Part shown: piece after piece, positions 4,030 through 59,609 of the stretch
Position numbering within the stretch: the first letter of the stretch is position 1
Layout of the letters: the number at the start of each line of letters is the position of its first letter
Origin: Escherichia coli
GTDB lineage: Bacteria > Pseudomonadota > Gammaproteobacteria > Enterobacterales > Enterobacteriaceae
Reading direction: 5' to 3' (one strand)
Assembly: GCF_022846255.1 (NCBI RefSeq)
Contig: NZ_AP025682.1
DNA: 64,000 nucleotides
The notes under the pieces: model-generated
Databases searched by the model: none
What the model was told of the DNA's origin: nothing
Seen by the model: only the letters and a program-made list of their open reading frames with translations
Position numbers and translations under genes: made by a program

Positions 4030-5253
4030 ATGCGTAAAAAAGAAGAGAATCTGAATACGGCATCAGGATTGCGTATTGCCATGATTTTGCTGGGTATTGC
4101 CGTCACACCTGTGCTGTTGTCATCCTCAAGCCTCGGCAATCAACTTTCCAGCGGCAGTTTAATTAGCGTCGTATTGTTAGGCGGCGTCATTCTGACCTTA
4201 CTTTCAGCCATCACCATTAGCGTGGGAGAAAAAGCCCGCCTGCCAACGTATGGCATTGTGAAATATTCGTTTGGCGAAAAAGGGGCCATCGCCATTAACA
4301 TTTTGATGGCGATAAGTCTGTTCGGCTGGATTGCCGTTACCGCCAATATGTTTGGTCATTCGGTACATGACTTACTGGCTCAACATGGACTGGAAGTTCC
4401 ACTGGCACTGTTAGTGGCGGCTGGCTGTGTCATTTTTGTCGCCTCTACGGCATTTGGCTTTGCCGTTCTGGGAAAAATTGCCCAGGTTGCCGTGCCGGTT
4501 ATCGCGCTGGTGCTGTGTTACATCCTCTATGTGGCAACCCATACCGAAGTGGCAGTACCAGCGGCGATTGTGGAGATGAATACAGGTGTCGCCGTTTCCA
4601 CCGTTGTTGGCACCATTATTGTGCTGGTTGCCACACTGCCTGATTTCGGTAGTTTTGTGCATAACCGCAAACATGCGCTGATTGCCGCAGGCGTGACGTT
4701 TCTGGTTGCCTACCCTCTGCTCTACTGGGCGGGTGCAACGCCGAGCGCCATTAGTGGTCAGGGATCTTTACTGGGTGCGATGGCGGTATTCGGTGCGGTT
4801 CTGCCTGCGGCGCTGTTGTTGATTTTCGCCTGCGTCACCGGTAACGCGGGCAATATGTTCCAGGGCACGCTGGTGGTTTCCACACTGCTTACCCGCTTTC
4901 CCAAATGGCAGATTACCGTGGCGCTGGGTATCCTTTCCGCCATCGTAGGCAGTATGGATATTATGGCGTGGTTTATTCCGTTTCTGCTGTTCCTGGGTAT
5001 CGCCACGCCACCCGTTGCCGGAATTTATATCGCTGACTTTTTCCTTTATCGCCGTAATGGCTATCAAGAGTCAGTGTTAGCCCAGGAGTCACAGATTAAA
5101 GTGCTGACATTCGCAGCATGGATCATAGGCGCAGCGGTTGGCTTTATGACCGTAAAAGGCTTATTCACCCTGACGACGATCCCTTCGGTAGACTCGATTC
5201 TGGTGGCATGTATCGCGTATGCGATTCTCAGTCGGGCAAGTCAACACCGCTAA
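4030..5253 (+). CDS. NCS1-family permease (cytosine/purine/allantoin permease-like)
   Basis: 407-aa polytopic membrane protein with CodB-like sequence; AAGGGA Shine-Dalgarno. Confidence 0.75.
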   Translation: MRKKEENLNTASGLRIAMILLGIAVTPVLLSSSSLGNQLSSGSLISVVLLGGVILTLLSAITISVGEKARLPTYGIVKYSFGEKGAIAINILMAISLFGWIAVTANMFGHSVHDLLAQHGLEVPLALLVAAGCVIFVASTAFGFAVLGKIAQVAVPVIALVLCYILYVATHTEVAVPAAIVEMNTGVAVSTVVGTIIVLVATLPDFGSFVHNRKHALIAAGVTFLVAYPLLYWAGATPSAISGQGSLLGAMAVFGAVLPAALLLIFACVTGNAGNMFQGTLVVSTLLTRFPKWQITVALGILSAIVGSMDIMAWFIPFLLFLGIATPPVAGIYIADFFLYRRNGYQESVLAQESQIKVLTFAAWIIGAAVGFMTVKGLFTLTTIPSVDSILVACIAYAILSRASQHR

Positions 5254-37425: not shown

Positions 37426-38622
37426 ATGCTAAAAGTGTTATTGCTCTTTGTGTTGCTGATTGCGGGGATCGTGGTTGGCCCGATGATTGCCGGCCATCAG
37501 GGTTACGTGCTGATCCAGACCGACAACTACAATATTGAAACTAGCGTCACGGGCCTCGCGATTATTTTGATTCTGGCGATGGTAGTGCTGTTTGCCATTG
37601 AGTGGCTACTGCGGCGAATCTTCCGCACAGGCGCGCACACCCGTGGGTGGTTTGTCGGACGTAAGCGTCGCCGTGCACGTAAGCAGACCGAACAGGCGCT
37701 GCTGAAACTGGCGGAAGGCGATTATCAGCAAGTTGAAAAGTTGATGGCGAAAAATGCCGATCACGCTGAACAACCGGTGGTGAACTATCTACTGGCAGCC
37801 GAAGCCGCGCAACAACGTGGTGATGAAGCACGCGCCAACCAACATCTGGAACGCGCAGCGGAGCTGGCCGGCAATGACACCATTCCGGTAGAAATCACCC
37901 GTGTACGTCTGCAACTGGCCCGTAATGAAAACCATGCAGCACGTCACGGCGTGGATAAGCTGCTGGAAGTTACGCCACGCCATCCGGAAGTATTACGTCT
38001 GGCGGAACAGGCGTATATCCGCACTGGTGCATGGAGTTCGCTGCTGGATATCATCCCATCAATGGCGAAAGCCCATGTTGGTGATGAAGAACATCGTGCA
38101 ATGCTGGAACAACAGGCATGGATTGGCCTGATGGATCAGGCGCGTGCCGATAACGGTAGTGAAGGTTTGCGTAACTGGTGGAAAAACCAAAGCCGGAAAA
38201 CGCGTCATCAGGTGGCCTTGCAGGTGGCAATGGCGGAACATCTTATTGAGTGTGACGATCATGATACTGCCCAGCAAATTATCATCGATGGCCTGAAACG
38301 CCAGTATGACGATCGCCTGCTGCTGCCGATCCCGCGTCTGAAAACCAATAACCCGGAACAGCTGGAAAAAGTGCTGCGCCAACAGATCAAAAACGTGGGC
38401 GATCGCCCGCTGTTGTGGAGCACACTGGGTCAGTCGCTGATGAAACACGGAGAATGGCAGGAAGCATCGCTCGCCTTCCGCGCAGCGCTGAAACAACGTC
38501 CGGACGCCTACGATTACGCATGGCTTGCCGACGCGCTGGACAGACTGCACAAGCCGGAAGAAGCCGCAGCGATGCGTCGCGACGGTTTGATGTTAACGTT
38601 GCAGAACAACCCGCCACAGTAG
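37426..38622 (+). CDS. hemY: HemY (TPR-containing heme biosynthesis-associated membrane protein)
   Basis: 398-aa product matching HemY; begins 3 nt after hemX stop. Confidence 0.95.
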   Translation: MLKVLLLFVLLIAGIVVGPMIAGHQGYVLIQTDNYNIETSVTGLAIILILAMVVLFAIEWLLRRIFRTGAHTRGWFVGRKRRRARKQTEQALLKLAEGDYQQVEKLMAKNADHAEQPVVNYLLAAEAAQQRGDEARANQHLERAAELAGNDTIPVEITRVRLQLARNENHAARHGVDKLLEVTPRHPEVLRLAEQAYIRTGAWSSLLDIIPSMAKAHVGDEEHRAMLEQQAWIGLMDQARADNGSEGLRNWWKNQSRKTRHQVALQVAMAEHLIECDDHDTAQQIIIDGLKRQYDDRLLLPIPRLKTNNPEQLEKVLRQQIKNVGDRPLLWSTLGQSLMKHGEWQEASLAFRAALKQRPDAYDYAWLADALDRLHKPEEAAAMRRDGLMLTLQNNPPQ

Positions 38623-38632
38623 CTCTTTCTCA

Positions 38633-38654
38633 CCCGGAGGCAAGCACCTCCGGG
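38633..38654 (+). terminator. hairpin downstream of hemY
   Basis: CCCGGAGG caagca CCTCCGGG, 8-bp stem, followed by a pyrimidine-rich tract. Confidence 0.4.
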
Positions 38655-38670
38655 GCCTTTCTGATATATA

Positions 38671-38876
38671 AAAAAACGCCTGCTCTTATTACGGAGCAGG
38701 CGTTAAAACAGGTCTGTATGACAACAAGTGGGTGCTTCACTCAACGTTGTGTCCATGGTGTCTGATGAGGCATAAGCGACATCTGTCAGTGGACGATAAG
38801 CACCGTAAACGGCTCTGCGTCATTCCGGAGTTTATGAGGCACTAAGGCGAACATAAGAGATGGAATGAGCATCTAC
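38671..38876 (-). ncRNA. glmZ: GlmZ small regulatory RNA (SraJ/RyiA)
   Basis: minus-strand sequence GTAGATGCTCATTCCATCTCTTATG ... AACGCCTGCTCCGTAATAAGAGCAGGCGTTTTTT matches GlmZ as I recall it; terminator hairpin plus U-run at the 3' end; lies in the hemY-aslA intergenic region. Confidence 0.8.
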
Positions 38877-39300
38877 TCGTTTATTATGCCACAGAGAACC
38901 GGGAAATAACATCCCTTAACACTTGTTATGAGATAATTCTGTAATCCTCTTTGCTTCCTGAGTAATAACTTCCTGAGTGAATATTTCTCCTGCGCACAAT
39001 TCTACACATATATATAATGAATAATAAAAGTCATTCAATTAATAACATATATATTAATTGCCGTTAAAACTAAAAACAGCATCAATAATCAACGCGATAT
39101 AACATCACCGCCTTACATATCACCTGCGCCAGAGGTAGGATTGCAAACGCTCTCCTGATTTTCCAATTCATTTTCTGGATAAATAAATAATTTATTTTTA
39201 TCACTATTATTTATGCAATCATCCTGTCAGGGAGAGGGATCTCAATTATCAATGCTTAATTACGTCATCATTTTGACGACATGAAACCGGAGCATTTTGC

Positions 39301-40956
39301 ATGGAATTTTCGTTTTCACCCAAACTTCTTGTTGTTGCTGTCGCCGCAGCTCTTCCTCTCATAGCCAGCGCAGCAGATACCCCGTCAACCGCCACCGCAC
39401 GCAAAGGCTTTGCCGGATACGATCACCCAAACCAGTATCTGGTTAAACCGGCGACCACTATTGCCGACAACATGATGCCGGTGATGCAGCATCCTGCACA
39501 AGACAAAGAAACCCAGCAGAAACTGGCGGAACTTGAGAAAAAAACCGGTAAGAAACCGAACGTGGTTGTTTTCTTGCTGGATGATGTGGGCTGGATGGAC
39601 GTTGGCTTTAACGGCGGCGGCGTGGCGGTGGGTAACCCTACACCAGATATCGACGCCGTTGCCAGCCAGGGGCTGATTTTAACTTCGGCGTATTCTCAAC
39701 CGAGTTCTTCCCCAACCCGCGCCACGATTCTCACCGGACAATACTCCATCCACCACGGCATTCTGATGCCGCCAATGTACGGGCAACCGGGCGGTCTGCA
39801 AGGGTTAACCACGCTGCCGCAGTTGCTGCACGATCAGGGCTACGTCACTCAGGCCATCGGGAAATGGCATATGGGGGAAAACAAAGAGTCGCAGCCGCAG
39901 AACGTTGGCTTTGATGATTTCCGCGGCTTTAACTCGGTATCCGATATGTATACCGAATGGCGTGATGTTCACGTCAACCCGGAAGTCGCCCTGAGCCCGG
40001 ATCGTTCTGAATACATCCAAAAACTGCCGTTCAGCAAAGATGACGTTCATGCCGTGCGCGGCGGTGAACAGGAAGCCATTGCCGACATTACGCCGAAATA
40101 TATGGAAGACCTGGATCAACGCTGGATGGAATATGGCGTTAAGTTCCTCGACAAGATGGCGAAGAGTGATAAGCCTTTCTTCCTCTATTACGGCACTCGC
40201 GGCTGTCACTTCGATAACTACCCAAATGCGAAATATGCGGGTAGCTCTCCGGCGCGCACCTCTTACGGCGACTGCATGGTGGAGATGAACGATATCTTCG
40301 CCAATCTGTATAAAGCACTGGAGAAAAACGGTCAGCTTGATAACACGCTGATTGTGTTCACCTCTGATAACGGTCCGGAAGCCGAAGTTCCGCCGCACGG
40401 TCGCACGCCGTTCCGCGGTGCGAAAGGTTCTACATGGGAAGGCGGCGTTCGTGTGCCAACCTTCGTTTACTGGAAAGGCATGATCCAACCGCGTAAATCT
40501 GACGGCATTGTCGATCTGGCGGATCTCTTCCCTACGGCACTGGATCTGGCGGGGCACCCTGGGGCGAAAGTAGCGAATTTAGTACCGAAAACCACCTTTA
40601 TCGATGGTGTGGACCAGACATCTTTCTTCCTGGGAACAAATGGTCAGTCTAACCGTAAGGCCGAGCACTACTTCCTCAACGGCAAACTTTCTGCTGTGCG
40701 TATGGATGAGTTCAAGTATCACGTCCTGATCCAGCAACCGTACGCGTATACCCAGAGCGGGTATCAGGGTGGATTCACCGGCACAGTAATGCAAACGGCG
40801 GGATCGTCGGTGTTTAACCTGTACACCGATCCGCAGGAAAGCGACTCCATCGGCGTGCGCCATATCCCAATGGGTGTACCGCTACAGACCGAAATGCACG
40901 CGTATATGGAGATCCTGAAAAAATATCCACCACGCGCGCAGATTAAATCTGATTAA
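39301..40956 (+). CDS. aslA: arylsulfatase
   Basis: 551-aa product with signal peptide and sulfatase motif region ([13 protein letters not shown]). Confidence 0.9.
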
Positions 40957-40984
40957 GCCGGCGCTATCGCTGAGATCTACCTTT

Positions 40985-41010
40985 GCCGGATGCGATGCTG
41001 ACGCATCCGG
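40985..41010. repeat. REP-like palindrome downstream of aslA
   Basis: GCCGGATGCG atgctga CGCATCCGGC. Confidence 0.55.
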
Positions 41011-41023
41011 CAATCAACCGCAG

Positions 41024-41048
41024 GCGGCCACAAAATGGCCGCTTTTTT
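41024..41048 (+). terminator. rho-independent terminator of aslA
   Basis: GCGGCCA caaaa TGGCCGC followed by TTTTTT. Confidence 0.6.
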
Positions 41049-42282
41049 ACTTATTCACCACCAGCAAATGCGCCTGCATAATGTCGCTGGCCGGACGACC
41101 GTGCGCCAGTAAATCAACCATTGCTTTAAGATATGGCGGTAGATGGCGGAAATAACGCTGATACCCGGCACACAAATAATTCAGCCCGGGTTTGCCGCTG
41201 GCATCGAGCATAAAGCGGTGTTTCGGGCAGCCTCCCCAGCACGCTTTTAACACGTTGCAACTGCGACACTGTGCCGGTAACTGCTTGAATTTATCTTCAC
41301 CAAATGCCTGCTGTTGCGGGGAATCAATCATTTCTGCAATCATCTGCTGAAGCATATTCCCTAGTCGATACTGCGGATAAACATAGTGATCGCAGGCATA
41401 AACGTCACCGTTGTGCTCAACAATCACCGAGCGCCCACAGGTTGGCTGATGATGGCAAACCGCGCCCGGTGCGCCGACAAAATTGGCGAACGCCCATTCG
41501 ATATTCATTACGAAAATCTTGCCGACGTCGCGCTTAATCCAGTGGTCGAAAATCGCCACCAGAAACTCACCGAACTCTTGCGGGCACACCGACCATTCCG
41601 TCAGTTCGCCCTGAATATCGCCGGGAGCATGTAGCTTAAGTCCAGCATGAGCAGCCGTTTCATCAGCCAGGCGCTCGACCACCGGAATAAACTGGATGAA
41701 CTCAACACCTGCATCACACAGAAAATCATAGACTTGCAAAGGTTGTAACGCACTGGTGCGATTGACGCAGACCAGCACGTTATAGTCGACATGATGTTTT
41801 TGCAGGAGCGTCAGAGCACGCATCACCAGCTTATGCGTTGGTCTGCCACCTTTGGTCACGCGATATTGATTGTGGATCTCAGCCGGACCATCCAGCGATA
41901 ACCCTACAAGAAAATGATTTTCTGCCAGAAATGCACACCATTCGTCATCGAGCAGCACGCCGTTAGTCTGGAAGCTATTACTTATCTTCCTGCCAGCACC
42001 ATATTTCGCCTGTAGCGCCACGGCACGGCGGTAAAAATCCAGCCCGAGTAACGTTGGTTCGCCGCCCTGCCAGGTAAAAGCCACTTCGTTTTGGGTTTCG
42101 CTGGCAGCGATATAGTGACGGACATACGCTTCCAGCGTGTCATCGTCCATATGCGTGACTGGCTTTTCGTGGTAAAGGGATTGTTTTTCGAGATAAAAAC
42201 AGTAGTCACAGTTCAGATTACAATCAGAACCGCTCGGTTTCGCCATCACATGAAAAGCACGCGTTGGAACCTGTTGCTGCAT
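41047..42282 (-). CDS. aslB: anaerobic sulfatase-maturating enzyme homolog (radical SAM)
   Basis: CxxxCxxC radical-SAM motif (CNLNCDYCFY); 411 aa from internal ATG of ORF 41047..42312. Confidence 0.9.
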   Translation of the reverse strand: MQQQVPTRAFHVMAKPSGSDCNLNCDYCFYLEKQSLYHEKPVTHMDDDTLEAYVRHYIAASETQNEVAFTWQGGEPTLLGLDFYRRAVALQAKYGAGRKISNSFQTNGVLLDDEWCAFLAENHFLVGLSLDGPAEIHNQYRVTKGGRPTHKLVMRALTLLQKHHVDYNVLVCVNRTSALQPLQVYDFLCDAGVEFIQFIPVVERLADETAAHAGLKLHAPGDIQGELTEWSVCPQEFGEFLVAIFDHWIKRDVGKIFVMNIEWAFANFVGAPGAVCHHQPTCGRSVIVEHNGDVYACDHYVYPQYRLGNMLQQMIAEMIDSPQQQAFGEDKFKQLPAQCRSCNVLKACWGGCPKHRFMLDASGKPGLNYLCAGYQRYFRHLPPYLKAMVDLLAHGRPASDIMQAHLLVVNK

Positions 42283-42395
42283 GGTCGCTCCTTGCCTGAA
42301 GTCATCCTTCAATAAGTTAAGGGCGAAATCATACCGTGGCGCAATACGTTATTACGGGCGTTTATTGCGAAGGGAAAGTGACGAAATGCACAGAA

Positions 42396-42420
42396 AACAA
42401 AAAACCCCGCCGAAGCGGGG
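42396..42420 (-). terminator. terminator of the argX-hisR-leuT-proM tRNA operon
   Basis: CCCCGC cgaa GCGGGG hairpin followed on the minus strand by a T-run. Confidence 0.6.
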
Positions 42421-42428
42421 TTCAAAAT

Positions 42429-42505
42429 TGGTCGGCGAGAGAGGATTCGAACCTCCGACCCACTGGTCCCAAACCAGTTGCGCTACCAAGCTGCGCTACT
42501 CGCCG
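42429..42505 (-). tRNA. proM: tRNA-Pro (anticodon UGG)
   Basis: reverse complement folds as a 77-nt tRNA with ...TTTGGGA... anticodon loop and encoded CCA. Confidence 0.9.
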
Positions 42506-42547
42506 AAATACTGCTTTTTGAATTTTTAGTTCAATTCTTTAAAGTCG

Positions 42548-42634
42548 TGGTGCGAGGGGGGGGACTTGAACCCCCACGTCCGTAAGGACACTAACACCTG
42601 AAGCTAGCGCGTCTACCAATTCCGCCACCTTCGC
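42548..42634 (-). tRNA. leuT: tRNA-Leu (anticodon CAG)
   Basis: 87-nt type II tRNA with long variable arm, anticodon loop CTTCAGGT, encoded CCA. Confidence 0.9.
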
Positions 42635-42654
42635 ATTGTCACAACTTCTAATAA

Positions 42655-42731
42655 TGGGGTGGCTAATGGGATTCGAACCCACGACAACTGGAATCACAAT
42701 CCAGGGCTCTACCAACTGAGCTATAGCCACC
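42655..42731 (-). tRNA. hisR: tRNA-His (anticodon GUG)
   Basis: 77 nt including the extra 5' G(-1); anticodon loop ATTGTGA; encoded CCA. Confidence 0.9.
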
Positions 42732-42788
42732 ACTACAAATCTTGTTACGCGGTATTACTACCACCGCAGCTCAAGCGCCGGGACTAAA

Positions 42789-42865
<77 letters not shown>

Positions 42866-59149: not shown

Positions 59150-59479
59150 TTACGCCAGGTTAGCGTCGAGGAACTCTTTCAACTGACCTTTAGACAGTGC
59201 GCCCACTTTGGTTGCCGCCACTTCACCGTTTTTGAACAGCAGCAGAGTCGGGATACCACGGATGCCATATTTCGGCGCAGTGCCAGGGTTTTGATCGATG
59301 TTCAGTTTTGCAACGGTCAGTTTGCCCTGATATTCGTCAGCGATTTCATCCAGAATCGGGGCGATCATTTTGCACGGACCGCACCACTCTGCCCAGAAAT
59401 CGACGAGGATCGCCCCGTCCGCTTTGAGTACATCCGTGTCAAAACTGTCGTCAGTCAGGTGAATAATTTTATCGCTCAT
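59150..59479 (-). CDS. trxA: thioredoxin 1
   Basis: [41 protein letters not shown]... 109 aa with WCGPC active site. Confidence 0.97.
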
Positions 59480-59609
59480 ATATAACTCCACAGGAATAAG
59501 CCTGGCGTGTTGGTTTCGTTGTTGGTGTAACATTAACCAACTAAAGGTTGACTTTATTTCACCGGATACGCTTTCGTAAAGCAATAGTAAGCTGATATTC
59601 TACCACACT

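Follow-up and report, generated by a model that had tools for sequence, protein, structure and literature searches.

A full-length glmZ small RNA gene convergent with hemY in an Escherichia coli genome

The hemY-aslA spacer and its annotation

The window analyzed here, a 64-kb stretch of Escherichia coli DNA, carries between hemY and aslA a minus-strand sequence that, as the best explanation of the evidence presented below, is almost certainly the E. coli glmZ gene (Table 1). The gene is convergent with hemY, and 47 nt separate the GlmZ 3' end from the hemY stop codon; aslA is located upstream of glmZ beyond a 424-bp spacer. Both neighbors are annotated likewise in MG1655 and in E. coli records matching the window with 100% identity over 901 bp. 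This arrangement agrees with a preliminary description of the same DNA, which had placed a GlmZ gene in the hemY-aslA spacer, convergent with hemY and with its 3' end "about 50 bp" from the hemY stop.

Table 1. Features of the glmZ locus (coordinates within the window)
Feature	Coordinates	Strand	Details
hemY, 398 aa, convergent neighbor	37426..38622	+	ORF; annotated HemY in identical E. coli records
G+C-rich hairpin, candidate hemCDXY terminator	38633..38654	+	8-bp stem, 6-nt loop, -15.8 kcal/mol
glmZ, primary GlmZ sRNA, 207 nt	38670..38876	-	5' end 38876, 3' end 38670; full-length RF00083 match and MG1655 identity
3' oligo(U) tail, 5 U	38674..38670 (GlmZ nt 203-207)	-	invariant in 15/15 aligned sequences
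SL3, intrinsic terminator hairpin	38704..38675 (GlmZ nt 173-202)	-	11 bp, 8-nt loop
Single-stranded region CACUUGUUGUCAUACAGACCUGUUUU, 26 nt	38730..38705 (GlmZ nt 147-172)	-	glmS base-pairing and RNase E cleavage sites
SL2	38804..38731 (GlmZ nt 73-146)	-	Rfam structure line, MFE fold
SL1	38876..38811 (GlmZ nt 1-66)	-	Rfam structure line, MFE fold, consensus fold with compensatory pairs
Putative extended -10 TGgCATAAT	38891..38883 (-10 hexamer 38888..38883, positions -12 to -7)	-	read from sequence
Putative -35 element ATGTTA	38912..38907 (positions -36 to -31)	-	3/6 matches to TTGACA; 18-nt spacer
aslA, 551 aa, divergent neighbor	39301..40956	+	ORF; annotated arylsulfatase AslA

The preliminary description had also anticipated that a gene-only annotation would miss glmZ, and indeed the PGAP-annotated E. 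coli records hold no feature over this stretch. A glmZ ncRNA feature does exist in the RefSeq record of MG1655 (3986432-3986603, that is, 4433-4604 of our locus L002), where it measures 172 nt and corresponds to 38876..38705 of the window. Its last base is also that of the single-stranded region, so that SL3 and the U-tail are missing and it is 35 nt too short with respect to the 207 nt supported by both the literature and the Rfam match. A real non-coding gene was thus recognized from raw sequence at a site where PGAP shows nothing and the K-12 RefSeq feature falls short. The RNA itself is already known and ordinary, and this copy shows nothing unusual; it adds no biology, and its use is that of a positive control for the scan.

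Between the hemY stop codon and the GlmZ 3' end sits a further hairpin, identical in MG1655, which the preliminary description had named the hemY terminator. The hairpin and its position stand, but the name went beyond the data, since the tail that follows the stem, GCCTTTCT, contains only four T in eight positions, too few for the T-run that the terminator scan requires. On its sequence, this structure is a plausible candidate for the terminator of hemY. The weak T-tail, along with the lack of a T-run behind the GlmZ terminator on the plus strand, makes it conceivable that hemCDXY transcription reads through into the 3' part of glmZ, which would generate an antisense RNA to GlmZ including its glmS-pairing region. 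Such read-through, which we consider very unlikely, would couple transcription of the haem pathway to GlmZ activity.

Identity and anatomy of the encoded RNA

We scanned the whole window against all 4227 Rfam families. This search revealed a minus-strand match to RF00083 (GlmZ_SraJ) at 38876->38670, with 218.4 bits where the gathering score is 60 (E = 3.4e-56), which spans model positions 1-214 of 214 and carries no pair flagged as non-standard. The match recurred in a second search limited to 38300-39400. Given this E value for the whole window and a folding z-score of -3.3, chance is excluded as its origin. This second, more permissive search returned nothing besides GlmZ above threshold; two sub-threshold plus-strand candidates, ncr1175 (23.7 bits vs 60) and SNORA68 (21.6 bits vs 43), were dismissed as chance matches. 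Elsewhere in the window, a match to the TrxA 5' UTR thermometer (RF02773; 78.8 bits vs 58) lies at 59450-59549 on the minus strand, with several pairs flagged as non-standard.

The 207 nt of glmZ are identical to those of E. coli K-12 MG1655 (207/207) and, of 5426 complete E. coli genomes, 5424 carry them at 99% identity or more. The 901-bp region around the gene is just 95-99% identical in 4833 records, which indicates stricter conservation of the RNA than of the DNA beside it. K-12 GlmZ (SraJ/RyiA, RF00083) thus shares with the window the RNA itself, the divergent aslA and the convergent hemY, the promoter hexamers, the terminator, and the glmS-pairing region. The two differ at one base in the promoter spacer (-23) and at four bases in the 3' flank, from the terminator to the hemY stop, and at none within the RNA. 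The comparison with the RF00083 covariance model that the preliminary description had proposed as a check on its assignment gave a significant match, well over the gathering score, and supports that assignment, as does the identity with the experimentally characterized K-12 glmZ.

On the minus strand, the RNA begins with 5' GUAGAUGCUCAUUCC from 38876 and terminates with ...GCAGGCGUUUUUUU at 38670, in agreement with the primary transcript of 207 nt that has been reported (PMC4152352). The preliminary description had given the same terminal sequences and was one U short at the 3' end (38671), a discrepancy that is trivial because RNA ends vary within the U-tract; its terminator hairpin at 38675-38704, followed by a U-run, was recovered as drawn. 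This hairpin, SL3, consists of 11 perfect pairs, 7 of them G-C, closed by an 8-nt loop and followed by a T-run (-19.3 kcal/mol); counting the last two residues of its stem, the U run extends to 7 U. SL1, SL2, and SL3 were all recovered both in the MFE fold and in a consensus fold. In the alignment used to score covariation, which comprises 15 Enterobacterales sequences, 12 of the 52 consensus pairs show compensatory changes. For example, a pair in SL2 (alignment columns 95/169) occurs as U-A in eight sequences and as C-G in seven, and 5/11 pairs of SL3 have changed in a compensatory fashion in relatives, while the loops carry indels. The succession of SL1, SL2, a 26-nt single-stranded region, and SL3 is that of the published GlmZ, in which RapZ contacts SL1 (PMC9841335), the function of SL2 has been described (PMC4737144, PMC9841335), and the U-tail is an Hfq-binding determinant (PMC4737144).

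Promoter, relatives, and alternative readings

As a feature of family membership, we examined the gene's own promoter, with transcription starting at the G of GUAGAUG (a single sigma-70 promoter in E. coli). A putative -35 element and an extended -10 motif are found at the right distance upstream of this G and are the same as those of the mutagenized K-12 promoter. A generic sigma-70 scan upstream of glmZ did not detect this promoter, whose -35 element matches the consensus at just three of six positions, and hence its assignment rests on the published K-12 mutagenesis. In that work, substitution of the three consensus-matching -35 bases drastically lowered expression and mutation of the -10 motif abolished it (PMC3045617). 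Deletions and point mutations further traced K-12 glmZ expression to one constitutive sigma-70 promoter that needs neither GlrR nor sigma-54 (PMC3045617). The two minus-strand hits that the scan gave at 39245-39203 are no more than chance would yield (2 vs 2.1 expected).

The aslA-glmZ spacer includes an AT-rich block at 38900-39200, with 29-30% G+C as compared with 50-60% in the flanking genes, in which an imperfect direct repeat of 19 nt occupies 38997-39015 and 39036-39054. A tandem 15-nt direct repeat (38954-38983; CTTCCTGAGTAATAA / CTTCCTGAGTGAATA) precedes the glmZ start by approximately 80-105 nt and reads ACTCAGGAAG twice on the glmZ-sense strand. Since published deletions showed that the glmZ promoter does not need sequence upstream of -40, this 15-nt repeat may relate to aslA or be fortuitous.

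Homologs were collected by scanning species-representative genomes with a pattern derived from GlmZ SL2, which identified many Enterobacterales loci, and 15 of these were chosen. Rfam recognized full-length GlmZ in 14 of them, at 144-219 bits, the fifteenth being GlmY. The 18-base pattern scan also matched contigs from outside Enterobacterales (Acidobacteriota, Deltaproteobacteria, and others), probably by chance for a 16-base pattern in 298 Gb. In all 14 relatives hemY is convergent with glmZ, a context next to hemCDXY that has been reported before (PMC3045617). GlmZ of Salmonella, Yersinia, and most other Enterobacterales likewise shares with the RNA described here the fold into three stem-loops, the GACCUG/UGUUGUC core, and the U-tail.

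These relatives depart from the window in their promoter and in their upstream neighbor. A sigma-54 motif, TGGCA-N7-TGC starting at -27, is present in 11 of the 14 relatives and absent from the window and from E. albertii, where TCCCGG/TCCCTG replaces the -24 element and only the putative sigma-70 promoter is kept. Its absence here agrees with the single sigma-70 promoter mapped in K-12; in Yersinia, the GlrR/QseF-controlled sigma-54 promoter drives glmZ alone, whereas in Salmonella it overlaps a sigma-70 promoter (PMC3045617). As for the neighborhood, E. albertii is the only one of the 14 relatives with aslA beside glmZ, and other genera have the argX-hisR-leuT-proM tRNA cluster as upstream neighbor instead. 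In the loci compared for this trait (L005, L016, L028, L046, L053, L077, and L079), from Citrobacter, Salmonella, Pluralibacter, Kosakonia, Serratia, Proteus, and Mangrovibacter, the four-tRNA cluster lies upstream of glmZ at a distance of ~150-700 bp. In the window (39301-42865) and in E. albertii, aslA-aslB intervenes between glmZ and the tRNA cluster, which in the window appears as four consecutive minus-strand tRNA genes (42432-42865) and corresponds by position to the argX-hisR-leuT-proM cluster of MG1655. It looks as if aslA-aslB were an insertion of the Escherichia lineage, coinciding with loss of the sigma-54 glmZ promoter.

Assignment to glmZ has to be weighed against the paralogous decoy sRNA GlmY (RF00128), which would sequester RapZ without pairing with glmS. 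In favor of GlmY, the two families are members of one Rfam clan (CL00011), of which an overlapping match with a lower score was suppressed here, and the SL2-based pattern also caught an Erwinia GlmY. GlmY has a similar SL1 and SL2 and, like GlmZ, is bound by RapZ. It differs in that its single-stranded region comprises 12 nt, as opposed to the 26 nt of GlmZ (PMC4737144), and lacks complementarity to glmS, in that it is not cut by RapZ/RNase E but acts by sequestering RapZ, and in that it is encoded at a different locus (PMC4737144, PMC4152352). The RNA described here has a single-stranded region of 26 nt that is complementary to glmS, and its gene is linked to hemY, as is typical of glmZ. The GlmZ model won the clan competition with 218 bits over its full length, and this outcome, together with identity to the annotated K-12 glmZ, refutes GlmY, whose probability we regard as negligible. 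Extremely unlikely, too, is a reading in which the RNA-family match is incidental and the DNA encodes a short protein or belongs to the 3' UTR of an adjacent gene. Three mechanical ORFs do overlap it (38630-38740, minus strand, 36 aa with a GTG start; 38732-38845, plus strand, 37 aa; and 38415-38765, plus strand, 116 aa), but ORFs that small are expected by chance, annotations place no CDS here, and GlmZ has its own terminator and a promoter mapped in K-12. What favors an RNA over these ORFs is the pattern of variation among relatives, which follows the paired stems with compensatory changes, and the loop indels, which would break any reading frame.

The glmZ gene could, on the other hand, be present and behave differently in this strain, its level being altered by the promoter change at -23 or by read-through from hemY. 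One base of the promoter spacer does differ from MG1655 (38899; G here, A in MG1655), and the weak T-tail of the 38633-38654 hairpin would allow transcripts of hemCDXY to enter glmZ in antisense. Against this, the -23 change falls outside the -35 and -10 hexamers and the TG motif, the G allele recurs within an identical 901-bp sequence in many unrelated E. coli isolates, and the mature RNA is unchanged with respect to MG1655. We consequently hold a deviating behavior of glmZ in this strain to be very unlikely.

Pairing with glmS and the proposed regulatory circuit

We then turned to the complementarity of GlmZ with the glmS leader, which was taken from MG1655 because glmS lies outside the window; of 5426 E. 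coli genomes, 5424 carry the glmU-glmS leader. Unrestricted RNAduplex pairing of full-length GlmZ with the whole glmU-glmS spacer returned an end-to-end duplex that is meaningless, as 224 of 300 shuffles scored equal or better, and the test was then restricted to the single-stranded region. Two blocks make up the pairing of this region with positions -41 to -21 of the leader, UUGUUGUC with GACAACGA and CAGACCUG with CAGGUUG. The energy, -19.2 kcal/mol, is by itself weakly better than the chance level (reached by 46/1000 shuffles). The pairing falls in the part of GlmZ that publications name as the glmS site. Across the 15 aligned sequences the GACCUG core is invariant and most of UGUUGUC is conserved. 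This complementarity to glmS is shown for this copy, as are its identity, anatomy, conservation, and synteny.

Transcription, the action of Hfq, RapZ, and RNase E, and the regulatory outcome are carried over from published work on K-12, whose sequence is identical, and by that analogy would proceed as follows. A constitutive sigma-70 promoter with a weak -35 and an extended -10 would direct synthesis of the 207-nt GlmZ. Hfq would bind the single-stranded region and the U-tail, and the former would pair with the glmS leader ~20-40 nt upstream of the start codon. Pairing would open the hairpin that hides the ribosome-binding site, so that GlmS (glucosamine-6-phosphate synthase) would be made and the glmS mRNA stabilized; in K-12, GlmZ does open, with Hfq, the inhibitory hairpin over the glmS ribosome-binding site (PMC4152352, PMC4737144, PMC9841335). 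When glucosamine-6-phosphate is plentiful, the adaptor RapZ would bind SL1 and SL2 and present GlmZ to RNase E, whose cut inside the single-stranded region would leave an inactive species of ~151 nt, as documented in K-12 for RapZ binding to SL1/SL2, recruitment of RNase E, and processing of the 207-nt RNA to a ~151-nt product that is inactive (PMC4152352, PMC4737144, PMC9841335). When the metabolite is scarce, the homologous decoy RNA GlmY would sequester RapZ, with the consequent accumulation of full-length GlmZ; low glucosamine-6-phosphate has been reported to cause titration of RapZ by GlmY in K-12 (PMC4152352, PMC4737144, PMC9841335).

GlmZ is a textbook example of a translation-activating sRNA whose activity is set by regulated decay through RapZ, RNase E, and the decoy GlmY, and it controls the first committed step in the synthesis of cell-envelope amino sugars. 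The glmS ribozyme of Gram-positive bacteria serves the same purpose, that is, feedback of glucosamine-6-phosphate on GlmS synthesis (PMC4152352). The ribozyme is a cis-acting, metabolite-activated, self-cleaving element within the glmS leader, whereas GlmZ is a trans-acting sRNA of unrelated sequence.
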